NCBI GenBank assembly: GCA_051531975.1
Contig: JAOPTT010000009.1
Span: 32,001-96,000 of the forward strand
Direction of reading: 5' to 3'
Source of the DNA: Spirochaetaceae bacterium
GTDB lineage: Bacteria; Spirochaetota; Spirochaetia; DSM-2461
DNA: 64,000 bases
Shown: piece after piece, positions 10,174 to 22,326 of the stretch
Numbering within the stretch: position 1 is the stretch's first letter
How the letters are laid out: each line of letters starts with the position of its first letter
The notes under the pieces: generated by a model
The model's database searches: none
What the model saw: the letters and a program-made list of their open reading frames with translations, nothing else
Told to the model about the DNA's origin: nothing
Translations under genes and position numbers: made by a program

Positions 10174-11688
10174 ATGAATAAGAAAGTACAAGAGTTATTA
10201 CAATTACCAGTTTTATCTATATTTTTATTATTAACAGTAGGAACTTCATTTTCAAGCCATATGTTTTTAGACGGCGTTACAATGGCTGCAATATCCCGTA
10301 ACCTTTCAGTAGGTCTTGGATCATATTGGGACATGTTTTATACAACAGACATTAATCATTTTATTTCACATCCCCCTTTTGGTTTGTGGTTAGAATCAAT
10401 TTTATTTAGAATTATTGGAGATAAACCATGGGTTGAGTCTCTGTTTGGATGGTCACTAGGTATTTTCTCGATATATTTAATATCAAAGCTATGGAAAAAG
10501 GTTACAGGTAAGACCAGTGGTTCATGGTGGGTTATATTAATTACTCTTTTTAGCCCAATATTAACATGGTGTTTTAATAATAATATGCTTGAAAATAGTG
10601 TTGTTGTATTACTTTTAATTTATACATTATTGGTGATTGAAGCCTTTAATTCCAATAATATTCTAAAGCTTTCATTATTTTCACTATCATCTGGTATTAT
10701 AATGTTTTTAGCTTTATCTACTAAAGGACCACCAACACTGTTTCCCATAATACTACCACTGGTTATTCCTCTTTTTCTGAAAAAGTTCAGTATAAAAAAA
10801 GGTTTAACTATTTTAAGCTTAATCTTATTAACAATTATGTTATCAGTTGGTATTACATATTTAATTAGTGGAGATGAATTTATGAGATTCATTAGTAGAT
10901 ATATTCGCCACCAGTTATTACCTAGTATAAACGGTGATGTTGAAGTTTCCCCTAATAGGTTACTAATATTACAAATCCTACTTAAACAACTGCTTTTAGG
11001 ACTAATATTGATAGTTATATCGATAACTACTATTACCAAGAAAAAAAATATTTTAAAGGAAAATAGCTGGATTATTGTTCTTATTGTCTTGGGACTTGCC
11101 GGAAGTTTACCTTTCTTGATTTTTAAAAAACAGATGGCTTGGTATTTAATGCCAAGTATTCCATTCTTTACTATAGCAATAAGTATTTTAACAGCTCCCA
11201 TTGCAGAAAAAATAGAGGTGTTTATATATAAAAAAATAGGAGTTTTCAATAATATTATTACAATTTTCACGGCCTGTTTAGTATTGATTTCTCTATTTTC
11301 AACCACTATATATAAAGGTAAATCATATTTAGCTCCTGAAATTGTAATAAGAGATATTTTTTCTTCAGGTAAAGATGGATCAAATAAAGATAAAGCAAGA
11401 TTTTATAGTGAATATACATGGCAAAATTTCAACCTAGATATTGTAAATCAGAAAGTTGAAATCCCAGTAGGAAGTAGTATCGCTACTCAAGAAACACTAC
11501 ACGATTTTTGGCGAATGAATGCTTATTTTCAGAGAGTTTATAGTGCTAATCTTAGTCTTAGAATAAAAAGTGATGGTGACTTCTTTATAGCTGGGGAAGT
11601 ATCAAAAGATAATTTTTCTCCATTTGGTTTTAGACCTATTAGTAATAAAAAGGCTGTTTATAACTTTTTTGAAAAAACAAACAAATGA
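10174..11688 (+). CDS. ArnT/PMT-like (GT39/GT83, GT-C fold) integral membrane glycosyltransferase
   Basis: FLDG..MA, SHPPFGLWL, KGP motif, WYLMP; many TM helices. Confidence 0.8.
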   Translation: MNKKVQELLQLPVLSIFLLLTVGTSFSSHMFLDGVTMAAISRNLSVGLGSYWDMFYTTDINHFISHPPFGLWLESILFRIIGDKPWVESLFGWSLGIFSIYLISKLWKKVTGKTSGSWWVILITLFSPILTWCFNNNMLENSVVVLLLIYTLLVIEAFNSNNILKLSLFSLSSGIIMFLALSTKGPPTLFPIILPLVIPLFLKKFSIKKGLTILSLILLTIMLSVGITYLISGDEFMRFISRYIRHQLLPSINGDVEVSPNRLLILQILLKQLLLGLILIVISITTITKKKNILKENSWIIVLIVLGLAGSLPFLIFKKQMAWYLMPSIPFFTIAISILTAPIAEKIEVFIYKKIGVFNNIITIFTACLVLISLFSTTIYKGKSYLAPEIVIRDIFSSGKDGSNKDKARFYSEYTWQNFNLDIVNQKVEIPVGSSIATQETLHDFWRMNAYFQRVYSANLSLRIKSDGDFFIAGEVSKDNFSPFGFRPISNKKAVYNFFEKTNK

Positions 11689-12068
11689 GAAGCTGTAAAG
11701 TTTATTAGGAAAGCAGTTAATATTCCTATTCCTTGTGGAATCGTTTTATAAGGTATATTGGGAAAAACTGTAAGCAGAAGATTTAGAACTATTAAATTGA
11801 TTAGTAGTCCTACTAATGAAACCGATACAAACTTTACATATCGAACAAATGTTAATGAAGCACCTTTATACGTCCACAGGGTATTTATTATATAGTTCTG
11901 AGATACCGCAATAATAAAACATATAATAGCTGCTATATTTTTATCTAACATATATCTATCTGCGATTATATAAAAAATGATTAAGTTTGTTATTAACCCT
12001 AAGGAGCCAACTAGACCAAAACTTATTAGACGCTTAAATATATTCATTTGATAAATCTTAAAAGCCAA
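11658..12068 (-). CDS. GtrA-family flippase
   Basis: Four TM helices; FGLVG, NYIINTLWTY, NF.ASHLFVF. Confidence 0.85.
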   Translation of the reverse strand: MAFKIYQMNIFKRLISFGLVGSLGLITNLIIFYIIADRYMLDKNIAAIICFIIAVSQNYIINTLWTYKGASLTFVRYVKFVSVSLVGLLINLIVLNLLLTVFPNIPYKTIPQGIGILTAFLINFTASHLFVFSKKL

Positions 12069-12748
12069 ACTTTAAATAATGCTTCAAAATATATTTTTAA
12101 ACTCATTTTAGATTTACCAGCACTACGTTCAATAAAAACGATAGGAAATTCTAAAAAACTAAAACCATTTTTAATTGCCCTAGTTTTTAGTTCAATCTGA
12201 AACATATAACCCTTTGATATTATAGAATCAAAATTGATAGATTCTAATACTTCTTTTTTCCAAAAATTGAAGCCACCAGTCATATCTTTTATTCCACTTT
12301 GTAGAATTATTCTAGAATATAATGACCCATATGAGGATATAATACTTCTAAACCGACTCCACCCTTCAATACCTCCGCCATTAATATATCTAGAGCCAAT
12401 TACAAAATCACACTTCTCATCAAATTTAGACATCATGGATTTTAAATACTTGGGTTGGTGGGAAAAGTCAGCATCAAATTGACATATATAATCATAATTG
12501 CTATTTAAAGCCCATTTAAATCCTTGAATATATGCGTAAGCTAACCCTTCTTTAATTTTACTTTCCACTAGATAAAGGTTTTTAGTTCGAATCATAAGGT
12601 CTTTTACACATAAGTTAGTACCATCGTTTGAATTACCGTCAACTACTAAAATATCTACATGGGGACAGTTACTAAAAACTTTAGTAATAATATGGCTAAT
12701 ATTTTCAATTTCGTTATATGTTGGTATTATAATCAAGTTTTTTGACAT
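12044..12748 (-). CDS. Polyprenol-phosphate glycosyltransferase (GT2, Dpm1/GtrB-like)
   Basis: IIPTYNE, VVDGNS.DGT, DADFSH, GSRY..GG, D.TGGF, GYMFQIE, GKSKM. Start set at ATG 12748. Confidence 0.92.
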   Translation of the reverse strand: MSKNLIIIPTYNEIENISHIITKVFSNCPHVDILVVDGNSNDGTNLCVKDLMIRTKNLYLVESKIKEGLAYAYIQGFKWALNSNYDYICQFDADFSHQPKYLKSMMSKFDEKCDFVIGSRYINGGGIEGWSRFRSIISSYGSLYSRIILQSGIKDMTGGFNFWKKEVLESINFDSIISKGYMFQIELKTRAIKNGFSFLEFPIVFIERSAGKSKMSLKIYFEALFKVWLLRFIK

Positions 12749-12754
12749 AATGCC

Positions 12755-12783
12755 ATAATAAAGCTTCATATTATAGCTGTCAA
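12755..12783 (-). promoter_or_regulatory. Sigma70-type promoter, leaderless
   Basis: TTGACA-17 nt-TATTAT, then 6 nt to ATG; no SD. Confidence 0.7.
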
Positions 12784-12792
12784 TAATAAAGC

Positions 12793-12821
12793 TTGTCAGA
12801 GATTATCATATATATTATTAT
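12793..12821 (+). promoter_or_regulatory. Sigma70-type promoter, leaderless
   Basis: TTGTCA-17 nt-TATTAT, then 6 nt to ATG 12828; no SD. Confidence 0.65.
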
Positions 12822-12827
12822 CAAATA

Positions 12828-13472
12828 ATGAAAAAGCTCATCATACTTTTTATATCAATCCAATCAATATATTCAAATAATTTTGACCAGTTAAACCAAG
12901 CAATTAAAAAATTAGATTATGACAAAACATTATTGAGTTTTGAAGCTGAAACAACAATATCTAATTATAATAAGATTACAGCTAAAACTTTAGTTAAATA
13001 TGATCCAAAGAATAAAGACCCTTATAGTTTGTTATTAAAAGATGATAAACCTCCTACTGAAATAGACATTAAAAAATATAAAAAACAGAGAAGTAAAAAC
13101 AAAAGTTTTAGTGCTGTAGATTATTTAGGAAAAACATTTACCTTTGTCTCTCAAGAAGATGATATTGCATATTATACCTTCACTTCGAAAAAAAATATTA
13201 TCCCAGGTTTTCCTTCAAAAATGCCAGGAAGATTATGGCTAGATGTGACAAATAAAATGATTACAAAAGTTGAAATATTAAACAAAGAAAAAAAAGTCAT
13301 ATTCCCAGGTGTTTCTCTGAATATGTTTATAATGGAACTTAAATTTTTACCATTTAATAAAGATATTACAGTTTTAGATTCAATGGATACATTTATAGAT
13401 GCCAAAATCTTTACTAAAAAGCTTAAACAAAAAATTAAAACAAGAACAAAGAACTATCTATCTGTCCCTTAG
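12828..13472 (+). CDS. Hypothetical exported protein
   Basis: MKKLIILFISIQSIYS signal peptide; basic, beta-rich; no recognised motif. Confidence 0.7.
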   Translation: MKKLIILFISIQSIYSNNFDQLNQAIKKLDYDKTLLSFEAETTISNYNKITAKTLVKYDPKNKDPYSLLLKDDKPPTEIDIKKYKKQRSKNKSFSAVDYLGKTFTFVSQEDDIAYYTFTSKKNIIPGFPSKMPGRLWLDVTNKMITKVEILNKEKKVIFPGVSLNMFIMELKFLPFNKDITVLDSMDTFIDAKIFTKKLKQKIKTRTKNYLSVP

Positions 13473-13499
13473 TGACGATGCAAGAATTAAATAATTATA

Positions 13500-13528
13500 T
13501 TGTCATAATTATTTATAGCATATATAAT
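13500..13528 (+). promoter_or_regulatory. Sigma70-type promoter of the radical SAM/Tat operon
   Basis: TTGTCA(13500)-17 nt-TATAAT(13523); a second TGGTATAAT at 13530. Confidence 0.65.
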
Positions 13529-13562
13529 TTGGTATAATTTTAAAAAAAATGGATGGTATAAA

Positions 13563-14573
13563 ATGGCTAATATTCTCCTTACCGAACAGTGCGTAAGATC
13601 ATGCCCATATTGTTTTGCTAAGAAACATATGGAGAATTCTGAAAATAAAAACTTGCAATGGGAAGATTTTATTTATATTGTTGATCTTTTTGAAAAGAGA
13701 AACCCTAGATATATGTCTCTTTTAGGTGGAGAACCTACTCTACATAAACATTTTGTAGACTTTGTTTTATACTTAATAAATAGAGATTTTGGTGTAACAG
13801 TTTTTACAAGTGGTATTATGAGTCCTTCTAAATTAGAGGCTTTAAAAAAGGCTTTAGCAGAGTTTCCAAAAGCAAAGGTAAGTTTTGTTGTAAATCTAAA
13901 TCATCCATCAATGTCTGATGAGAAAGAACTAGAGAGAATTGATGCATTTCTAGATGAGTTTGGAGAGAGTTGTACTTTAAGTTTTAACTTTTATACGTTA
14001 GATATGGAGATGGAATATCTTTTTGATTATATTGAAAGATTTAACTTAAATAGACATATTCGAATCGGTTTAGCTCATCCAATTCCAGGAGAAAAAAACC
14101 TTTGTATTCCTACTGACCAATTTGACGAAATGGTCGAAAAATTAGCAACATATATACCTATGTTTATTAAATATAGAGTTAGCCCTGGGTTTGATTGTGG
14201 ATTCCCACTTTGTAAATTTACCGATGATCAATTAGGTAAATTTAAGAAATTAGAAAAAGGTAATGGCTCAGGTTCTGTTAAATTTGGTTGTAATGCTGCA
14301 ATTGATATTGGTCCAGATATGACTGTATGGTCTTGTTTCCCTTTATCTAAGTATCATAGAAAAAGTCTATATGACTTTGATTCAGTTGATGCTGTTTATG
14401 AGTATTATCAAACAATGCATTATAATGTGAGAGATAAAAAAGCTGGAGTTTTTGAAGAGTGTGAAGGATGCCGATATCAAGAAAGTGAGTTATGTAAAGG
14501 TGGTTGTCTTGCGCATATAGTTAATACTGATGAAAGCATTATTAAGGAGGCTAGTGGTGTTAAACGTAACTAA
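13563..14573 (+). CDS. Radical SAM/SPASM-domain protein
   Basis: CVRSCPYC, LLGGEPT, PLC, GCNAAIDIGPD...SC, CEGC...CKGGC. Confidence 0.92.
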   Translation: MANILLTEQCVRSCPYCFAKKHMENSENKNLQWEDFIYIVDLFEKRNPRYMSLLGGEPTLHKHFVDFVLYLINRDFGVTVFTSGIMSPSKLEALKKALAEFPKAKVSFVVNLNHPSMSDEKELERIDAFLDEFGESCTLSFNFYTLDMEMEYLFDYIERFNLNRHIRIGLAHPIPGEKNLCIPTDQFDEMVEKLATYIPMFIKYRVSPGFDCGFPLCKFTDDQLGKFKKLEKGNGSGSVKFGCNAAIDIGPDMTVWSCFPLSKYHRKSLYDFDSVDAVYEYYQTMHYNVRDKKAGVFEECEGCRYQESELCKGGCLAHIVNTDESIIKEASGVKRN

Positions 14574-15429
14574 AAAAATAATTGTTGCTGCTTATGAGCC
14601 AAAGTTTGCAAATGATATTGGTAAACAGAAAATAGTATATTACACAGATAAATTAGAAGACGTTCTTACAATTTATGGTGATGCCATAGATAAAAACGAA
14701 CTTATGTGTATAAAAGTTGATACTGATAAAAATCTATCTGAACTTGAATTTAAAGATGAATGGCAAAGTATTCCAATTGCCCTTTATACTCCATCTGTTG
14801 GTGATCTATCAGAGATGTTAATACAGGGTAAGAAACTAAAAAAGTTTAATATCCAGATTTTCTTACCAATAGAAAATAAAGATACAATTAGAGATCTTAG
14901 AATACTTTCTTCTGTCGGTATCAATTGTGGTTTTTATATTAAAGATGAAAATTCAGATGTAGACTGGGAACAAGTTGATGATCTTTTTTATTACTATGCT
15001 TATACAAATACTGAAAAAGGAAATATAGAACCTTTTAGATATATAATTGAAAAAGACTATAGAGAAAAATCATTTGATTTTAGAGCTGTAATATTTGATG
15101 ATCCAAATAAATTTGTTTATGTAGACAAGGATTTTAACTATTCAGTAAATCTTGATGAACTTACTAAAGGTTCTTTTCTTGGTAATGGAATTGATGAGTT
15201 AAAATCATATATAAATGAAGAAATAGATTATGTTTCAAAAAAATCAGATATGTTTTCTAAAAATGAAATCTGTTCATACTGTAGTAGTTGGAGGTTTTGT
15301 AGATCTAATTATTTTTCTCAATGTCAAAAGAATGAAACATATAAAATGTTGTTTGATAGTGTTTCTGATTATCTTGAAGTTCGAGTAAAACAACCATCTC
15401 AGAATGTGGAAAAAAAATGGCAGTTATAA
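14557..15429 (+). CDS. Radical SAM-associated accessory protein with C-terminal SPASM-like Cys cluster and no CxxxCxxC
   Basis: AAGGAGG 6 nt before GTG 14557; CSYCSSWRFC...C at C-terminus; overlaps both neighbours. Confidence 0.7.
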   Translation: MLNVTKKIIVAAYEPKFANDIGKQKIVYYTDKLEDVLTIYGDAIDKNELMCIKVDTDKNLSELEFKDEWQSIPIALYTPSVGDLSEMLIQGKKLKKFNIQIFLPIENKDTIRDLRILSSVGINCGFYIKDENSDVDWEQVDDLFYYYAYTNTEKGNIEPFRYIIEKDYREKSFDFRAVIFDDPNKFVYVDKDFNYSVNLDELTKGSFLGNGIDELKSYINEEIDYVSKKSDMFSKNEICSYCSSWRFCRSNYFSQCQKNETYKMLFDSVSDYLEVRVKQPSQNVEKKWQL

Positions 15430-16523
15430 TTTTTAAGGCTATTGAATATTGTAATTCAAATTGTATTTATTGCAGCGTTATAGAGAAAGATGAAGGCCAT
15501 ACTATGAGTTATGAAAGGCTTGAAACTGTTTTTATACGTATGAACCAATATTTGGAAGAACTTCCAGACGAGATAATCGATTTTACTTGGCATGGAGGGG
15601 AAGCAACCTTATTAGGTCCTGAATATTTTAGAAAAGCTTTAGAGTTTCAGAATGTTCACTGCAAAAAGACTAAGAATAGGATTAAGCATATAATACAATC
15701 TAATTTAACATGTATTACCCAAGAAATTATTGATGTTCTTAAAGACCTAGGTATAAACTCAATAGGATCAAGTTATGATCCTATTGAGGGAATTAGAGGG
15801 ATTGGTAAAAATAGAGACTCTAAATTATATAAAGAATTGTTTTTTAAAGGTGTTGATTTAGTTGAGAAAAATGGAATGACTTGGGGGATTATTTATGTTG
15901 TTCATAGAAGATCTTTAGAAGACCCCGTAGGAATTTTTAACCATTTGTCAAACTTAAATTTAGGCACATCTCCTGTTTTTAACTGTATATATTTGTACGA
16001 GGATGATAAACATCATTTAAGTATTACCCCCGAAGAGTTTGCGGACTTTTTAGGAGCTCTTGTCCCTTTATATATGGAAAATCCTGAAAAATATAAATCT
16101 ATACGACCACTAAGCATGTTTATTGACTCTATAAAAGAAAAAACACCATTAGGTTGTGATTATGCAGGAAATTGTGCAAATTATTGGCTATATATTGGAC
16201 CTACTGGTGAACTATCCCACTGTGGTAGAGCAGGTGATCAAAGAATAATAAGTTATGGAAATATCGACGATACTAGCCTAAAGGAAGCACTAAATCATCC
16301 TTACCGGAAAAAAATACTTGCTAGACAGACGTATTTGGTTGATAATGATTGTAAAGGCTGTAAATATTGGGGCATATGCCATGGTGGATGTCCAGTGGAT
16401 GCATTGTCTATGACTGGTGACATTATGAATAAAGCTATGTCATGCGAAATGGTAAAAAGATTAATGTCAAAATATATTGAACCCTTAGTTGATAAAGAAG
16501 TGCAATTTTATCCTAATAATTAA
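15417..16523 (+). CDS. Radical SAM/SPASM peptide or protein maturase (anSME-like)
   Basis: CNSNCIYC, WHGGEATL, QSN, CDYAGNC...IGPTG..SHC, CKGCKYWGICHGGCP...C. Confidence 0.93.
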   Translation: MAVIIFKAIEYCNSNCIYCSVIEKDEGHTMSYERLETVFIRMNQYLEELPDEIIDFTWHGGEATLLGPEYFRKALEFQNVHCKKTKNRIKHIIQSNLTCITQEIIDVLKDLGINSIGSSYDPIEGIRGIGKNRDSKLYKELFFKGVDLVEKNGMTWGIIYVVHRRSLEDPVGIFNHLSNLNLGTSPVFNCIYLYEDDKHHLSITPEEFADFLGALVPLYMENPEKYKSIRPLSMFIDSIKEKTPLGCDYAGNCANYWLYIGPTGELSHCGRAGDQRIISYGNIDDTSLKEALNHPYRKKILARQTYLVDNDCKGCKYWGICHGGCPVDALSMTGDIMNKAMSCEMVKRLMSKYIEPLVDKEVQFYPNN

Positions 16524-16553
16524 AGTTAGGTTTTATATAAAGAGGTGTGAATT

Positions 16554-16760
16554 ATGAATGAGAAAGAAATCATGGAAACTGGATCAGAGAGCAAAGTAAT
16601 TTCTAGAAAGGAAGCTTTAAAAAGAATTTCTAAGATCGGTTTAGGTATTGGTGCTGCAGTTGTTGCTACAAGTTGTGATCTTTATTATTACGACTATACT
16701 TATAGTGACTATAGTGATTATTATTACAGCTACTATGTTTATACAAACTACTACTGGTAA
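16554..16760 (+). CDS. Putative RiPP precursor: Tat-like lipoprotein signal plus Tyr-rich core
   Basis: RBS AGAGGTG; SRKEALK Tat-like motif, hydrophobic GLGIGAAVVA, lipobox-like ATS-C41; core DLYYYDYTYSDYSDYYYSYYVYTNYYW. Confidence 0.85.
   Translation: MNEKEIMETGSESKVISRKEALKRISKIGLGIGAAVVATSCDLYYYDYTYSDYSDYYYSYYVYTNYYW
16701..16718 (+). repeat. 9-nt tandem repeat encoding YSD-YSD
   Basis: TATAGTGAC TATAGTGAT. Confidence 0.8.
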
Positions 16761-16763
16761 TCT

Positions 16764-16970
16764 ATGCTGAGTTTTGTAGAGATTGCAATAGTAGGTGGAG
16801 CGATTCTTTTAATTTTTGGATCAACGAAACTTCCAAAATTGGGCCGAACAATGGGTCAAAGTTTGACAGAGTTTAAAAAAGGACTTAAAGAGGGTATGAC
16901 AGATACTAATGTTACTGATGAAAAGAAAGATGAAGAAGTAGCTGATAAGTCTGATATTGTGAATGAGTAA
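16764..16970 (+). CDS. tatA: Twin-arginine translocase subunit TatA
   Basis: EI.IV...LLIFG..KLP.LGR.MG..L.EFKKG signature; acidic tail. Confidence 0.95.
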   Translation: MLSFVEIAIVGGAILLIFGSTKLPKLGRTMGQSLTEFKKGLKEGMTDTNVTDEKKDEEVADKSDIVNE

Positions 16971-17673
16971 TACATTAACATTTTTTGAACACGTCAAAGA
17001 ACTTAGAAATAAATTAGGAATCTCTTCCATTGTATTTGTAGTGGCATCTGTGTTTGGTTACATAATTTTTCCATCTGTAATTAGTTATTTTAATAACTTT
17101 TTAGATGTAGGACTTCATGTAACCAAATTATATGAGGGCTTTTTTATGCGAGTGCAGGTTTCTCTTTATATTGGTCTTATATTTTTTATACCAGTTTTTT
17201 TATTAAATCTTTTGTTATTTATAGTCCCAGGTTTTGAGAAAGGTGATAAAGCAGTATTTGTTTCATTATTTCTTCTCAGTATCATTTTGTATGTAGTTGC
17301 TATACTTTCAGTTAGTATCTTTTTACCTATCACTATAAATTTTCTTCAATCAAAATCTTTTATTCCTGATACTCTTAATAAGATATTTTCATATGGTGAA
17401 TTTATAGATTTCTTTTTTACTTTTTTGTTAGCATTTTGTGTATCATTACAGTTTCCAGTTGTATTATTGGTTTTGCTGTATTTCAAAATATTAAAAACTG
17501 CTTGGTTAACTAAGTTTATTCCATACTTTGTTCCTGTTGCATTATTGTTGTCAGCAATAATGACTCAAGATATACTTTCTCAATTTTTGGTTGCAGTACC
17601 ACTGTTTGTTTTATATTTATTGTGTATCTTAGCTGCAAAGAAGTTAAAATGGGGTGTTGATGATATTTCTTGA
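16963..17673 (+). CDS. tatC: Twin-arginine translocase subunit TatC
   Basis: FFEHVKELR, EGF, FIVPG, QFPV, TQD..SQ..VAVP..LY; six TM helices. Confidence 0.92.
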   Translation: MSNTLTFFEHVKELRNKLGISSIVFVVASVFGYIIFPSVISYFNNFLDVGLHVTKLYEGFFMRVQVSLYIGLIFFIPVFLLNLLLFIVPGFEKGDKAVFVSLFLLSIILYVVAILSVSIFLPITINFLQSKSFIPDTLNKIFSYGEFIDFFFTFLLAFCVSLQFPVVLLVLLYFKILKTAWLTKFIPYFVPVALLLSAIMTQDILSQFLVAVPLFVLYLLCILAAKKLKWGVDDIS

Positions 17674-19288
17674 AATAATTGCAATTCTTTTTATTATTTT
17701 TATTATTAATCCACAAAACTCTGTTTCTATGTTACGGAAAGCTGGTGTTTTAGTTGGAAAATTAAGAAAAGTAATAAATCAATTAAAATCTTATTCTAAA
17801 GACTTTAATATAACTAATCTTGATAATGAAGTTGCAGGTAATAAAAATAGTGGGGTAAATGTTAATAATGGAAAAGCTGACCATTCAACCACAGTAACAA
17901 AGATGGTTCTTTTAGATGTTATTGAAGCTAGTTATAGTATTAACATGACAAAAAATATAATTCCTTTTCTATTTGATAACAATCCAGATATTGTAAGTAA
18001 AACTATTACTATCTTAAAAAAGGATCCTCTGTTTTCATTTGAAAAGAGAGATTCATTTAGTAACTGGAATGTTGAAAAATTAGTAAGGAATCCCAATTCA
18101 GAATATTTTAATAAGGTTTTTGATCCTAATAGAGTTGCTGAAGTATCAGGAGCTATCTTTAGTATTCCTAAGGAATCTTTTGAGAAACATTATAAAAATC
18201 TCGCTGACTTTAACGGTATAGATAATTTAAACATGAAAACAATATTTTCTAAAGATAAAAGCTCATTTTTTGGTGAGTTTAAAAACTTAAGAAAAAAATA
18301 TATCGCTAAGTGCTATCCTCCACAGGGATTTGTATCACCTAGTTATAGATGTAATCTAGATTGTTCCTATTGTTTTTCTAAAGACTTATTGCAAAAATTT
18401 AATAACGATATGACAGTTGAACAATTTACATTGTATTTAAAAAAGCTTAAGGCTGACTATAATATTAAGGAAATTGGATTTTTTGGTGGTGAACCAACTT
18501 ATTTCAAAAAATTAAATGAGTTTATAGATGTAGTTGAAAATGAAAAACTATTTTGTAATATTGCCTCAAATGGTATTGTTGAAAATCAAATCTGGGAAAA
18601 AATTGTTTCTAGAGGTAGTCTAGCAATGATTACATTTCATATTGAGGATAATGATTTTTATACTAACGATACCCACTTACCTAATATTATATCTAATATT
18701 AAAAGTGCTAACCAATTTAAAAAACAGATAACTTTTAGATATAATATCGTAGATAGTGAGAGAACTGATTGGAGTTTTCTAAATAAATATATTGATTTAG
18801 TTTCACAGTTTAGGTTTAGTTTTGCTATTCCATTTCCTTCTGGTAATGGTGAAAACGAATATGTATCATTAGATGAGTTAAATAAATTTGGAAAAACAAT
18901 TGTTTCTATGATCGATCATATAGATTTTTATAGTAGAAATAGACCATATGAAATTGTATTAGCTAAACCTATACCTCTATGTGTTTTCTCTGAAAAAGAA
19001 TATTTGAGAATTTTAGAAAAAGTCAGATACAAAAATGTATGTGAAATTGATAAAAATAATAATACAAATAATCTTATAATTAATCCTGATGGTTCATACC
19101 AGTCATGTGTAGGTTTAAATAAAGACAAGTACATATTCAATGACTTTTTAGGTCAAGAGTCTCTTCCTAGCAGTTATCATATGAATATTGATAGAGTTAT
19201 AAATAAACCAATGATGGATGACTGTAAAAAGTGTTATCTATTTAATATCGGAGTCTGCCAAGGGGCTTGTTATGCCTACACCCAGTAA
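17654..19288 (+). CDS. TatB-like N-terminal domain fused to radical SAM/SPASM enzyme
   Basis: N-terminus FLEIIAILFIIFIINPQ...LRKAG.LVGKLRK (TM helix, Pro hinge, amphipathic helix); CNLDCSYC, FFGGEP, PLC, IINPDG...SC, CKKC...CQGAC. Start may be ATG 17660. Confidence 0.8.
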   Translation: MLMIFLEIIAILFIIFIINPQNSVSMLRKAGVLVGKLRKVINQLKSYSKDFNITNLDNEVAGNKNSGVNVNNGKADHSTTVTKMVLLDVIEASYSINMTKNIIPFLFDNNPDIVSKTITILKKDPLFSFEKRDSFSNWNVEKLVRNPNSEYFNKVFDPNRVAEVSGAIFSIPKESFEKHYKNLADFNGIDNLNMKTIFSKDKSSFFGEFKNLRKKYIAKCYPPQGFVSPSYRCNLDCSYCFSKDLLQKFNNDMTVEQFTLYLKKLKADYNIKEIGFFGGEPTYFKKLNEFIDVVENEKLFCNIASNGIVENQIWEKIVSRGSLAMITFHIEDNDFYTNDTHLPNIISNIKSANQFKKQITFRYNIVDSERTDWSFLNKYIDLVSQFRFSFAIPFPSGNGENEYVSLDELNKFGKTIVSMIDHIDFYSRNRPYEIVLAKPIPLCVFSEKEYLRILEKVRYKNVCEIDKNNNTNNLIINPDGSYQSCVGLNKDKYIFNDFLGQESLPSSYHMNIDRVINKPMMDDCKKCYLFNIGVCQGACYAYTQ

Positions 19289-20195
19289 GGTTGGAGTCAA
19301 TTACATAATATTCAATGAACTCTGGGACGATGTTTTAGAAAATGAAAGTAATCAACCTATTAAGACAATTGAGCTAAATAAGTTAAAAACTATATATTTT
19401 GACTATTTATCAAATGCTTTAAAAAACCTACAACAATCACATACAAATATCGCAGTAACTGTTTGGCTAATTGAGATTTCTGAATCAGGTATAAAAGAAG
19501 TCGATCTTAGAGAGCAATTATTTAATACATTACCATACGTAAGAATTTATACAATTCCATTCATGAAAATAAGAAATTATATTTCAGCTGCAAAGAGACT
19601 AGCAAAAGGATTATATAGATCTCCTAATGAATTACACGAATTTTTAATTCTACATATAATAAAACTATCAACAACTCCTTATATTGCTATTTTAGACACT
19701 GATAATCTATTTCTAAGGCAAGATGCTTTGAATATTATTTTCCAATCATTAGAAGAAGATAAAGATAAATGGATAGGTTGTATCATGGAAAAAGGTATTA
19801 AGAGACCTTATAACGATGGATTCACTCAAATGAGAGAGAGAATGCATAGTGTAGCCCTTTTTATTATTAAAGATCGATTTAATAAAGGATTTACTGAGAC
19901 AACAAATTGGCGGATAGATACTTTTGATAAAGTTAAATTAATACAAAATGATGAATGCAGAGATTATTATCATAAGTATAAATTCTTCGATACTTTGGCG
20001 TTGTTAACCGATCTATTTAAATATAACTTTGGTGTAAATAGAATAAAAGAGTTAAACAAAGAATTAAACTCCCAAGAGTTTGAAAAATTAACCATAGTTA
20101 ACGATCTTTTTGTTCATAGTAAATATTTGCATGGAATAGATTATATTTTTGAAAACTTAAAAGATAATAAATTCATTTCTTCAATTCAAAGGTAA
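19272..20195 (+). CDS. Putative GT-A fold glycosyltransferase or nucleotidyl-sugar transferase
   Basis: TPYIAILDTDNLFL DxD motif after a beta strand; late His (FVHSKY); ATG overlaps end of previous gene. Confidence 0.5.
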   Translation: MPTPSKVGVNYIIFNELWDDVLENESNQPIKTIELNKLKTIYFDYLSNALKNLQQSHTNIAVTVWLIEISESGIKEVDLREQLFNTLPYVRIYTIPFMKIRNYISAAKRLAKGLYRSPNELHEFLILHIIKLSTTPYIAILDTDNLFLRQDALNIIFQSLEEDKDKWIGCIMEKGIKRPYNDGFTQMRERMHSVALFIIKDRFNKGFTETTNWRIDTFDKVKLIQNDECRDYYHKYKFFDTLALLTDLFKYNFGVNRIKELNKELNSQEFEKLTIVNDLFVHSKYLHGIDYIFENLKDNKFISSIQR

Positions 20196-20203
20196 AAAAA
20201 GTC

Positions 20204-20255
20204 TTTTACGACTAAAGTATGATGTTATTAATCACTTTTACACCTATAGTCTGAT
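20204..20255 (+). promoter_or_regulatory. Tandem 20-bp operator-like direct repeats
   Basis: TTTTACGACTAAAGTATGAT (20204) and TTTTACACCTATAGTCTGAT (20236); 16/20 identical, 32 bp apart. Confidence 0.55.
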
Positions 20256-20303
20256 ATCGTTTTAATATATTAAATACTAATCTTATCTTATATGGAGGTC
20301 GCA

Positions 20304-21536
20304 ATGTCAATGTATAAAATAGTATTAGTAATAATTAGTATTTCACTTCTATTTTCATGTACAGAGCAAGAGTATTTAGAATTAACGGGTGATTATTCTA
20401 TTGGAACATCAGTTTTTGAATTAGAAGACAAATCAAGGTTAGAATATTATTCTGAGGAAGTATCTGAAAATAGAACAATTGTAATCAGAGCATGGTATCC
20501 AATTGAAGCCAAATCGGGTAAAACACTTCCACAATATAATGGTAAGGGAGTAGCAAAAGAATTTCAAAAACTTTTTGGTATACCTTCCTTTTTAATGAAA
20601 GATAATATTGGAAGAGCCTATACTGATGGAAGCCCTTTAAAAGGTAAATATCCTGTAGTCATTTTTAATCATGGTTTTAGTTCATGGGAATCTCAAAATG
20701 CTACAACAATGGAAGAAATAAGTTCCAACGGTTATGTTGTGCTAAGTATAAATCATCCATACGAAAGCCTTTTTACTCAATTTAATAATATGGATAGTGT
20801 TAAATTCTCTATACCTGGTTATAAAGATAAGCTTAAAGCTATGAATAAAGATATTGATGATATAACTAACGAGTTAATACAAATGGTTAAAACTATTAAA
20901 GAAGCAACTACTGAGAAGTTATATAAAGAAGCTGTTATTAAAATTACTCAATCAAAGGCTTACAAACCTGTTTTCCCATCTTTAAAATTGTGGATTGAAG
21001 ATACAGCTTTTTTAATCTCATCTCTAAATGATATTAATTTAAGTAATATAATCGACAGTGATAATATTGCAGTTATAGGTCACTCTTTTGGAGGACTTGT
21101 ATCTAGTGAACTTTCAATGTTAGGAATTAGTGGTATTAAGTGTGGCATAAGTTATGATGGACCTGTTCTATTTGATAATATGAATAAAGATATTTCTCTG
21201 AAAACCCCATTTCTATTTTTAGCAAGTACCAATGCTAAGTATGGAAAAACTGTTGTTGATCTGTCAGGTCAAAATGATTTTTTAACAACAAAAACTGATA
21301 AAAAAGTTATTTCAGGCTCAATAAATGGTAGTGGGCATTATAATTTTTCAGATATGGGTTATGTCTCTTTTCTTAAAAGAACATCGATGTTAGGTCCTAT
21401 TGATGGAGTTAAGTCGTTACAAATTATGAATGGTATAACACTGTCTTATTTAGACCATCATTTAAAAGGTGAAGTTGATCCAACCAATTCTTGGTTAAAA
21501 ATTTACCCTGAATGGAATGTAAGCAGATCTAACTAA
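20304..21536 (+). CDS. Alpha/beta-hydrolase lipoprotein (PAF-acetylhydrolase/dienelactone hydrolase-like)
   Basis: Lipobox LLFSC; WYP, YPVVIFNHG, GHSFGG, HYNFSD. Confidence 0.88.
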   Translation: MSMYKIVLVIISISLLFSCTEQEYLELTGDYSIGTSVFELEDKSRLEYYSEEVSENRTIVIRAWYPIEAKSGKTLPQYNGKGVAKEFQKLFGIPSFLMKDNIGRAYTDGSPLKGKYPVVIFNHGFSSWESQNATTMEEISSNGYVVLSINHPYESLFTQFNNMDSVKFSIPGYKDKLKAMNKDIDDITNELIQMVKTIKEATTEKLYKEAVIKITQSKAYKPVFPSLKLWIEDTAFLISSLNDINLSNIIDSDNIAVIGHSFGGLVSSELSMLGISGIKCGISYDGPVLFDNMNKDISLKTPFLFLASTNAKYGKTVVDLSGQNDFLTTKTDKKVISGSINGSGHYNFSDMGYVSFLKRTSMLGPIDGVKSLQIMNGITLSYLDHHLKGEVDPTNSWLKIYPEWNVSRSN

Positions 21537-22326
21537 GACCAACTAGTTCAAATCTACTATTAACACCAGTTTTTTTAAAAATGTTTGTTATATGTGTTTT
21601 GACTGTGGGTATTGATATAAATAGTTCTTCGCTAATTTGTCTGTTTGATTTTCCTTTTAAAATATAATGTACAACCTCTTCCTCTCTGGGGGAGAGGCCT
21701 TCAATTTTTTTTGTGTTAATGTTATGTGTAATACTCGTATAATAAAGAATACAGTATAAAAGATATATGAATGGATATAGACGAATAGGTAAGGTATCTT
21801 GAGATATTATATCAAAAGCTATTAATGGAAGAAGAATCATATCATATTTTGAACTCTGTTTTTCAAACTTGGTTTTGTTCTTTTTAATTACACTACCAAA
21901 CATCGTAAATGCAAATAGAATAACAATAAATATCCGTATATAATTTACATGTGGAGATAATATTGTAATAAAATTATTTTCAATTTTCATAACAAATAAG
22001 ATAGATATTAAAATTATCAAACCACTAAAAATGTAAAATGCCAAAATTGGTTTTAAATATTTATGGTGCTTATATTGTAATTTAACAAGGCTTAACATAA
22101 ATAATATGACCATAATAGAAGTTGAATAATTTAGAATATAAATTATTGAAGGGTGAATTGAACTTATATTAATATTTAGATAAAAAATTATTAGTGTTAA
22201 TAATTGAAGTATTGTAAAAGTACAAAAGACCCAGAAATATTCTGAGTTAAGATTTTTTAATTTTTTTAGTATAAGTACACCTGCAACAATTATCGATGCA
22301 AGGTATAGGATGTAAATATGAATCAT
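21529..22326 (-). CDS. Membrane-bound LuxR-type transcriptional regulator
   Basis: Multiple TM helices plus LSPREEEV...GKSNRQIS.ELFIS..TVKTH...IFKK HTH. Confidence 0.9.
   Translation of the reverse strand: MIHIYILYLASIIVAGVLILKKLKNLNSEYFWVFCTFTILQLLTLIIFYLNINISSIHPSIIYILNYSTSIMVILFMLSLVKLQYKHHKYLKPILAFYIFSGLIILISILFVMKIENNFITILSPHVNYIRIFIVILFAFTMFGSVIKKNKTKFEKQSSKYDMILLPLIAFDIISQDTLPIRLYPFIYLLYCILYYTSITHNINTKKIEGLSPREEEVVHYILKGKSNRQISEELFISIPTVKTHITNIFKKTGVNSRFELVGLS

Follow-up and report, generated by a model that had tools for sequence, protein, structure and literature searches.

The DNA considered here, referred to as the window, is a 64,000-nt stretch from a marine spirochaete (Spirochaetaceae bacterium; GCA_051531975.1, contig JAOPTT010000009.1, positions 32,001-96,000 of the forward strand). 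At 13563-20195 it holds a run of eight plus-strand open reading frames (ORFs) that we read, with a probability of roughly 0.6, as one operon for a tyrosine-rich peptide that would be modified in the cytoplasm by radical S-adenosylmethionine (rSAM) enzymes, exported by way of twin-arginine translocation (Tat), and probably anchored to lipid. This reading is built on which genes are present, how they are conserved and linked, their phylogeny, and the failure to find further Tat substrates in the genome, and it predicts the biochemical steps of cross-linking, export and lipidation. The operon proteins were identified through Pfam and NCBIfam family scans (Table 1). The frames are tightly packed, with six of the seven junctions consisting of an overlap or a gap of at most 3 nt and the seventh of a 30-nt gap before the peptide gene, and the G+C content of the region is an even 27-33%. 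An earlier note on this DNA had described eight mostly overlapping genes on one strand, in the order rSAM enzyme, accessory protein, second rSAM enzyme, peptide, tatA, tatC, TatB-rSAM fusion and transferase, with no peptidase or ATP-binding cassette (ABC) exporter among them; the ORF list and the family scans bear out both the arrangement and the absence.

Table 1. Features of the operon, with positions counted from the first letter of the window.
Feature	Position	Strand	Description
Best sigma-70-like promoter match	13500..13528	+	TTGTCA-17-TATAAT; 11/12 matches; 35 nt upstream of gene 1
Gene 1, rSAM1	13563..14573	+	336 aa; radical-SAM enzyme with Cys-rich SPASM-like C-terminal region; first gene of the conserved trio
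Gene 2, acc2	14530..15429	+	299 aa; accessory protein, putative degenerate radical-SAM/SPASM fold, without CxxxCxxC
Gene 3, rSAM3	15417..16523	+	368 aa; anSME/DynA/DarE-like radical-SAM/SPASM enzyme (Radical_SAM + SPASM)
Gene 4, precursor	16554..16760	+	68 aa; Tyr-rich peptide
Precursor signal/leader	16554..16676	+	n-region, SRKEALKRI (Tat-type motif, RK variant), hydrophobic stretch, lipobox ATSC
Precursor core	16677..16760	+	27 residues after Cys, 14 of them Tyr, C-terminal Trp, then stop codon
Gene 5, tatA	16764..16970	+	68 aa; PF02416, 5.7e-14; sole TatA-family gene found in the genome
Gene 6, tatC	16963..17673	+	236 aa; PF00902, 2.4e-33; only tatC of the genome; in the cluster-borne TatC clade
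Gene 7, TatB-rSAM fusion (rSAM4)	17654..19288	+	544 aa
Gene 8, orf8	19218..20195	+	325 aa; no family; likely true start 19272

The product of gene 4 resembles the precursor of a peptide that is ribosomally synthesized and then modified post-translationally (RiPP), in that a conserved N-terminus of the RREALKRIA type is followed by a variable tyrosine-rich core and the gene lies beside those of modifying enzymes. A Shine-Dalgarno-like AAAGAGGTG precedes its ATG. The lipobox A-T-S-C occupies residues 38-41, with Cys41 encoded at 16674-16676, and the surrounding sequence reads ...SRKEALKRISKIGLGIGAAVVATSC|DLYYYDYTYSDYSDYYYSYYVYTNYYW; the core contains Y-Y-D, Y-S-D (twice), Y-Y-S and Y-T-N. The sequence features of a lipoprotein are present, namely a lipobox cysteine at the end of the signal and, in the genome of the window, one copy of Lgt and two of LspA, and acylation is predicted. 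No NCBIfam model matched the peptide.

Four other spirochaete genomes, from three families, have a cluster of the same order, and a fragment of it occurs within the genus of the window. In a sample of 61 related genomes of the same class, clear orthologues of the fusion protein occur in four genomes besides that of the window. The acc2 profile finds four genomes, namely that of the window and three others; in the fifth fusion-bearing genome, an assembly of the same genus that is 81% complete, just the end of the cluster is present, at the edge of a contig. Three complete orthologous clusters comprise rSAM1, acc2, rSAM3, the peptide, (tatA), tatC and the TatB fusion. Their peptides have an RR motif, the same S-C-D lipobox junction, and a tyrosine-rich core; those of the four other spirochaete clusters read TRRDALKRI, SRRQALERI, SRREALKRI and SRRDALKRM, and across four spirochaete precursors, three of them with RR, the residues R18, A21, L22, R24, I25, K27, S40, C41 and D42 are invariant. 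The tyrosine-rich peptide with Tat-type signal and lipobox that the earlier note had proposed is thus kept beside the same enzymes in four other spirochaete clusters, and the linkage of tatA/tatC and the TatB-rSAM gene to the maturases travels with the cluster in other genomes.

The maturases and the precursor are far more widespread than the spirochaete clusters. When one genome per species was scanned with the rSAM1 profile, 99 related stretches came up, of which 80 were kept, and precursors were sought as small plus-strand ORFs beside the trio of rSAM1, acc2 and rSAM3 with the strict motif RR[EDQNR]A[LIM][KER][RKN]. The record titles of these loci name at least 10 phyla, including Spirochaetota, Bacteroidota, Nitrospirota, Nitrospinales, Thermodesulfobacteriota/deltaproteobacteria and Elusimicrobiota; further titles name Planctomycetota, Acidobacteriota, Verrucomicrobiota, Armatimonadota, Veillonellaceae, a Thorarchaeota metagenome-assembled genome (MAG) and others. 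Of the 80 loci, 72 have the whole trio, the remainder being mostly cut by contig ends. A small ORF with the strict motif adjoins the trio in 52 loci, and at least 12% Tyr follows the motif in 45; variants such as SRKDALKRM, SRKEALKRI and SRRCAMKRI are missed by the strict pattern. As read from the sequences, the hydrophobic regions of the family precursors end in a lipobox-like Cys or an AxA-type site and so resemble those of real signal peptides. In the cores of 54 family precursors, Tyr makes up 39.5% of residues, Ser 16% and Asn 13%, and Tyr-Tyr spacings peak at 3, 6 and 9 (1117, 903 and 839 occurrences) versus 2, 5 and 8 (545, 606 and 682). The repeat cores reach about 150 residues in other phyla, and Elusimicrobia members have Tyr-poorer cores. 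Among eight family precursors of other phyla, none was matched by an NCBIfam model over its length, the only match being a leader-only one to TIGR04117 (E 0.013) in a deltaproteobacterial peptide.

The trio with a tyrosine-rich peptide bearing a Tat-type signal, for which the earlier note had proposed a neighbourhood search, recurs, and is linked to tat genes in other genomes. The note had also held that no RiPP pathway built in this way was known. Of this, the uniqueness of the combination of trio and Tat-leader tyrosine-rich precursor does not stand, since the combination is widespread, but the embedded Tat genes and the TatB fusion are special to spirochaetes and, as judged from the genomes compared, are limited to one subgroup of them. 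Its lipid anchor holds for the spirochaete clusters with their S-C-D lipobox but is not general, a regular-expression search finding a lipobox in 13 of the 54 family precursors. Tat genes lie inside the fetched flank in 10 of the 80 loci, and in four Bacteroidota loci (L052, 14525-14930; L049, L055 and L063) one or two tatA paralogues directly follow the precursor. Eight of ten non-spirochaete trio genomes tested have tatC elsewhere. A trio that, outside the spirochaetes, usually has no tatC nearby but has one elsewhere in the genome would be in keeping with a family that depends on Tat and supplies it in hosts without one. As a separate observation, in two deltaproteobacterial loci (L086, 5086-8142; L082, 8283-9874) three to five precursor paralogues stand in tandem, and a conserved TQGQDEC junction follows their signals.

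Within the trio, rSAM1 has CVRSCPYC (CxxxCxxC) at residues 10-17, matches Radical_SAM PF04055 at 5.7e-15, scores 21 bits for SPASM (TIGR04085; under the cut-off of 27), and is 58-64% identical to three spirochaete orthologues; no solved structure matched it by sequence at E <= 0.01. For acc2, no Pfam or NCBIfam family was found. Its AlphaFold2 model, from a 28-sequence alignment, has a predicted local distance difference test score (pLDDT) of 85.8, and the best Foldseek matches are CteB 5why, ChlB 9gm3, TigE and anSME 4k39, with template modeling (TM) scores of 0.49-0.58 and every match at E > 0.001. In the 28 sequences C248 is invariant and C251 and C257 are nearly so. Having this C-terminal Cys cluster without the SAM-cluster motif, acc2 fits a catalytically degenerate rSAM/SPASM-fold protein, and the model, the fold matches and the Cys cluster lend support to the description of gene 2 as a SPASM-like accessory. 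The acc2 family comprises 430 clusters at 50% identity (E <= 0.001), or 267 at 1e-30, and the members of six clusters looked up are nameless or called "hypothetical protein". When acc2 (28-row alignment) was modelled in complex with the precursor (4-row alignment), the prediction scored 0.00 and was uninformative either way.

The third member, rSAM3, has its best NCBIfam match in DynA (4.5e-40, nearly full length), with 137.7 bits against a cut-off of 450, followed by DarE (2.6e-38; 131.9 bits, cut-off 650) and the anaerobic sulfatase-maturating enzyme anSME (4e-37; 128.1 bits, cut-off 349.45). Lower scores were obtained for GrrM/OscB (6.4e-23; 81.3 bits, cut-off 310), AmcB (1.5e-20; 73.5, cut-off 425), YhhB (1.2e-16; 60.6, cut-off 445), XyeB (3.2e-13; 49.1, cut-off 450) and FxsB (31.6 bits, cut-off 370). 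The closest solved structure by sequence is anSMEcpe 4k37 (1.5e-16). The comparison with NCBIfam maturase families suggested in the earlier note thus yields family matches, triceptide and rSAM/lipoprotein models among them, all under their cut-offs.

The period-3 spacing of Tyr together with these affinities of rSAM3 makes aromatic cross-links the most likely chemistry, and the candidate products are C-C or C-O bonds that join a Tyr ring to a residue adjacent to it, of the kind known from three-residue cyclophanes. It is also conceivable that rSAM3 acts as anSME does and oxidizes Ser (or Cys) of the Y-S repeats to formylglycine-type aldehydes, with no cross-links formed. anSME modifies its substrates in the cytoplasm, before export; it is both a top NCBIfam match of rSAM3 and its closest solved relative, and Ser is the second commonest core residue. 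This alternative appears unlikely, however, given that the anSME score of 128 bits compares with a cut-off of 349 and is exceeded by those of DynA and DarE, that no C/S-x-P-x-R sulfatase motif was seen in the family precursors read, and that several cores have few Ser yet keep Y-x-N or Y-x-R. A further suggestion, that the peptide is the sacrificial precursor of a small tyrosine-derived cofactor and its N-terminus only a leader, draws on the weak matches of rSAM1 and rSAM3 to PqqE and the mycofactocin maturase; pyrroloquinoline quinone (PQQ) and mycofactocin both derive from Tyr-containing peptides. The absence of a peptidase from the cluster, the full signal-peptide architecture with lipobox or AxA sites, the linked tat genes, and the wide variation in core length and sequence leave this suggestion with very little probability.

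Gene 7 encodes a TatB-like helix module at about residues 1-55, a domain of unknown family at about 90-225, and an rSAM/SPASM region at 226-544 with CNLDCSYC; the family scans place Radical_SAM at 227-332 and SPASM at 470-542. The N-terminus shares with TatB the combination of transmembrane helix, Pro hinge and amphipathic helix, and its residues 1-79 gave no PF02416 match at E <= 0.1. The connection with TatB comes through relatives. The fusion profile finds small ORFs after tatC in the housekeeping tat loci of 16 of them, at E-values from 1e-6 (5e-6) to 2e-12, and three such ORFs match PF02416 (TatA_B_E) at 1.4e-4 to 7.7e-3. Two orthologous fusions match PF02416 weakly (0.024 and 0.092), and one database homologue of the fusion has precomputed PF02416 and PF04055 annotations. 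On this transitive evidence the TatB-rSAM/SPASM fusion named in the earlier note is accepted as the probable identity of gene 7. The fusion family is rare, with 12 other clusters among 5.8 billion.

Several lines of evidence suggest that the tat genes of the cluster are dedicated to it. The genome of the window, which is 98.5% complete, has one tatA and one tatC. In it, TIGR01409 and PF10518 found nothing at E <= 10, with controls positive in 12 of 14 genomes, and of the 49 matches in a permissive regular-expression scan only this peptide was judged to have a convincing Tat-type signal. In all four acc2-bearing genomes among the 61, the sole tatC is that of the cluster. Within the genus of the window, one two-contig genome that is 96% complete is devoid of the cluster and of both tatC and tatA. 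A TatC tree, of 27 rows, places the five cluster TatCs in one clade (support 86/86) whose sister is the stand-alone tatA-tatC-tatB operon of another spirochaete (96/89), and 14 housekeeping TatCs of the same family are separate (100/98). The TatC of one cluster genome groups with that of the window (100/100), not with those of seven other genomes of its own genus. Two housekeeping-Tat genomes of that genus have four and two TIGR01409 matches over the cut-off, several of them beside tatC, against 0, 0 and 1 in the cluster-only genomes. Because no other Tat signals were found, the TatC clade is separate, cluster and tat are jointly absent, and Tat signals are fewer, the tat genes look dedicated and not housekeeping.

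The opposite view would be that a housekeeping Tat system came to lie beside a maturase cluster by historical accident, with the peptide leaving by general secretion (Sec) or staying in the membrane. The earlier note had named it as refuting that these be the only, housekeeping, tat genes of the genome with the rSAM genes unlinked to tat elsewhere; they are indeed its only tat genes, but linkage of the rSAM genes to tat recurs in other genomes, and the searches for further Tat substrates found none. The accident is made improbable by that lack of other substrates and by the separate cluster clade across three families with one TatC apart from its genus, by the near-complete genome lacking both, by the fusion of TatB to a cluster-type rSAM domain, and by the difference in TIGR01409 counts.

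A number of observations weigh against dedicated Tat export of a modified peptide, the first three of which also speak for a housekeeping Tat. The motif in the window is S-R-K-E-A-L-K, with RK instead of the RR of the orthologues (T/S-R-R-x-A-L-K/E); the Tat-signal hidden Markov models (HMMs) TIGR01409 and PF10518 do not score the window peptide, and one orthologue's peptide reaches 15 bits for TIGR01409, under the cut-off of 16.7; and one spirochaete carries, besides its tat-bearing cluster, another tatC at a separate place in the genome. That other Tat substrates are absent was judged from two short HMMs and a regular expression, not from a trained predictor. One orthologous cluster is without tatA, a tatA lying at the edge of another contig, and one orthologous acc2 has an internal TAG. 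The fold matches of acc2 are all of the low significance given above. None of the cluster rSAMs reaches any curated NCBIfam cut-off, so that their chemistry is not transferable by homology. In two fusion orthologues CxxxCxxC is lost, and catalysis by the fusion protein is therefore not general. In the wider family, 28 of the 80 loci have no strict-motif ORF, many (uncounted) being cut by contig ends or having variant motifs, and in two of the ten non-spirochaete trio genomes, of unknown completeness, tatC was not found.

Apart from the adjustments given above, the interpretation in the earlier note is supported in all parts that sequence data can address. Tat export of a modified peptide remains the preferred reading, and its steps can be set out as follows. 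The N-terminal signal peptide of the precursor would target it to Tat; as its conservation reaches well past the Tat consensus (RREALKRIA across phyla), it probably doubles as the leader recognized by the maturases. In the cytoplasm, rSAM1, acc2 and rSAM3 would modify the Tyr-x-x repeats. The rigid modified peptide, unfit for Sec, would then be passed to a translocon of the cluster's TatA and TatC, with the fusion protein in the position of TatB acting as a fourth enzyme that, within the receptor complex, makes a last modification or proofreads; in some relatives the fused domain may be a non-catalytic binding domain there. After export, Lgt and LspA would lipidate Cys41 and cut before it to leave a 28-residue lipopeptide on the periplasmic side, and orf8 may add a sugar. 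The most specific form of this model is an enzyme-gated Tat translocon in which signal and leader are one, a single cross-linked tyrosine-rich lipopeptide is the only cargo, the fused domain performs or checks the last modification at TatBC, and the module moves between spirochaete lineages as a unit. This form is put forward tentatively.

Sugar addition is suggested by two unrelated kinds of gene. The model of orf8 has low confidence (pLDDT 60.4), and its 313 Foldseek matches at E <= 0.001 include LARGE1, SpsA, LgtC and others, the top ones being GT-A glycosyltransferases at TM scores of 0.3-0.45 from that low-confidence model. D142-x-D144 is invariant in all four homologous sequences, and no Pfam family matched. 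Homologues number just three (46-51% identity), one of which lies after rSAM4 in another member of the genus. It is probable, then, that orf8 is a lineage-restricted glycosyltransferase of the GT-A fold with a D-x-D motif; the transferase of the earlier note rests on the GT-A matches of a low-confidence model and on the motif, with no family assigned. As a part of the conserved system orf8 was rejected, having three database homologues and being absent from the three complete orthologous clusters. The second kind is a gene of the GT9 family (heptosyltransferase-like), which follows rSAM3 in 31 of the 80 family loci across many phyla (e.g., L052, 12957-13862) and is absent from the cluster of the window, where the unrelated GT-A-like orf8 sits at the end.

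These glycosyltransferases bear on a different view of what the product is for, in which the same export mechanics would serve an envelope material: tyrosine-rich repeats would receive their cross-links and sugars in the cytoplasm and then leave by Tat to form a rigid part of the cell surface with a structural, adhesive or redox-active role, the anaerobe's substitute for O2-dependent tyrosine cross-linking. The long repeats and the glycosyltransferases in other phyla favour such a material over a natural product, as do the high Tyr content, the GT-A-like orf8 here, and the absence of protease, immunity and exporter genes from the operon; a lipid anchor would hold the product on the cell. All record titles, moreover, are of MAGs, largely from anoxic settings as judged from the titles. 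The short core in the window, of just 27 residues, and the Tyr-poorer cores of Elusimicrobia do not agree well with a structural role, and we regard the envelope material as possible and short of probable.

Other genes vary among the orthologous spirochaete clusters. Two of these clusters (L033, 5865-8010; L035, 2733-5031) end in a YcaO-like gene and one for a tetratricopeptide repeat (TPR) protein instead of orf8. The YcaO-like genes match PF02624 at 1e-17 and 3.5e-16, with a weak match to the McrA thioamidation YcaO; neither they nor the TPR genes are in the cluster of the window, the rest of its genome not having been searched for YcaO. In one orthologous cluster (L034, 10723-11397) a gene of the PNP_UDP_1 phosphorylase/nucleosidase family is divergent from rSAM1, and its product could salvage 5'-deoxyadenosine. 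A further spirochaete locus (L047, 6615-12956) has two tandem trios, the first divergent, with a tyrosine-rich precursor upstream and, about 1.5 kb downstream of the trios, tatC and tatA of a different clade.

The earlier note had assigned a single promoter to the operon. The strong sigma-70-like site listed in Table 1 is plausible, but the number of such sites in the region is at the level of chance (52 versus 51.8 +/- 6.8 in shuffles), so the site is a candidate assigned by its position. Terminator-like sites within 12700-20500 numbered 0 against 1.7 expected. One metatranscriptome run from the same sample contributed a single 161-nt contig at 15437-15597, too little for a claim of expression. 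Upstream, at 10174-12769, lie a gene for a PMT_2-type membrane glycosyltransferase (504 aa, plus strand) and, on the minus strand, genes for a GtrA-like protein and a GT2 polyprenyl-phosphate-sugar-synthase-like protein, which together look like a set for protein or glycan glycosylation at the periplasmic face. Downstream are a platelet-activating factor (PAF) acetylhydrolase-like lipase with a lipoprotein-type N-terminus (20292-21536) and, on the minus strand, a multi-pass membrane protein ending in a LuxR/GerE helix-turn-helix (21529-22326); no link of these downstream neighbours to the cluster was seen in other genomes.

Comparison with known systems shows partial likenesses. Triceptides, made by XyeB, GrrM/OscB, FxsB, YhhB and AmcB, share with this family an rSAM/SPASM enzyme of the anSME group and repeated aromatic-x-x motifs, here with period-3 Tyr. 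However, rSAM3 is far under the cut-offs of all models for three-residue cyclophane-forming enzymes (3-CyFEs), triceptides have one rSAM each in contrast to two rSAMs and a pseudo-rSAM here, and the present cluster adds a precursor Tat-type signal, a lipobox and translocon genes; the cross-link in this peptide is predicted only. DarE and DynA make aromatic ether and C-C cross-links, and darobactin clusters have an ABC-type exporter and a released product. While these two are the best NCBIfam matches of rSAM3, the scores lie under the cut-offs and the core is unrelated (no equivalog score, no W-containing heptapeptide-type core). anSME, the closest solved relative by sequence, shares an O2-sensitive modification in the cytoplasm followed by export, but rSAM3 is under the family cut-off, no sulfatase motif was seen in the peptide, and there is no sulfatase in the operon. 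The rSAM/lipoprotein system of TIGR04133/TIGR04134 and the CXXX-repeat targets of TIGR04117 likewise pair an rSAM with a putative lipoprotein or repeat peptide, but rSAM1 scores 23.3 bits against the TIGR04133 cut-off of 425 and the peptide matches no NCBIfam model. In bufferins, which are RiPPs modified by multinuclear non-heme iron-dependent oxidases (MNIOs), a general-secretion signal peptide replaces the classical leader and the product acts in the periplasm; there the signal is Sec and the enzyme an MNIO, whereas here a Tat-type signal, rSAM enzymes, an apparently dedicated translocon and a predicted lipid anchor are found. No curated Pfam or NCBIfam model covers any of the unknown parts of the cluster.

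A functional parallel may exist with redox enzyme maturation proteins (REMPs). TorD, DmsD and NapD attach to a specific Tat signal and keep the substrate back until its maturation in the cytoplasm is complete, as described in two papers (PMC3316669, PMC8428690). A similar role is proposed for the TatB-fused domain, for acc2, or for both. The likeness is one of role only, REMPs being soluble and serving cofactor-containing enzymes, whereas here an rSAM-fold domain is fused to a translocon subunit. A literature search, with subscription papers and supplements outside its scope, found no description of a Tat-signal, rSAM-modified tyrosine-rich peptide or of a TatB-rSAM fusion, and the words "Tat", "twin-arginine" and "tyrosine" do not occur in passages of a study of Bacteroidales RiPP mining (PMC10352776). 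What is new relative to known rSAM-modified peptides is thus the combination of a leader with a Tat-type signal, an embedded translocon that appears dedicated, a TatB-enzyme fusion, and a predicted lipid anchor.

The enzyme-gated form of the model, if true, would provide the first fusion of an enzyme to a translocon in the Tat pathway and the first RiPP-like family exported by Tat. The proposed reading, if true, would join two separate fields in that radical-SAM peptide maturation would feed the export of folded proteins. Tat export following rSAM maturation would account for the decoration, by O2-sensitive enzymes of the cytoplasm, of peptides that act outside it, and the TatB-enzyme fusion would offer a natural handle on how maturation is coupled to the release of a signal peptide to the Tat receptor complex. 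The family, with two rSAMs, a pseudo-rSAM, often a GT9 gene, and tyrosine-rich repeats behind a Tat leader, is found mostly in uncultured anaerobes. As its titles span at least 10 phyla and no curated model covers it, it presents a large target for new tyrosine chemistry and for envelope function.

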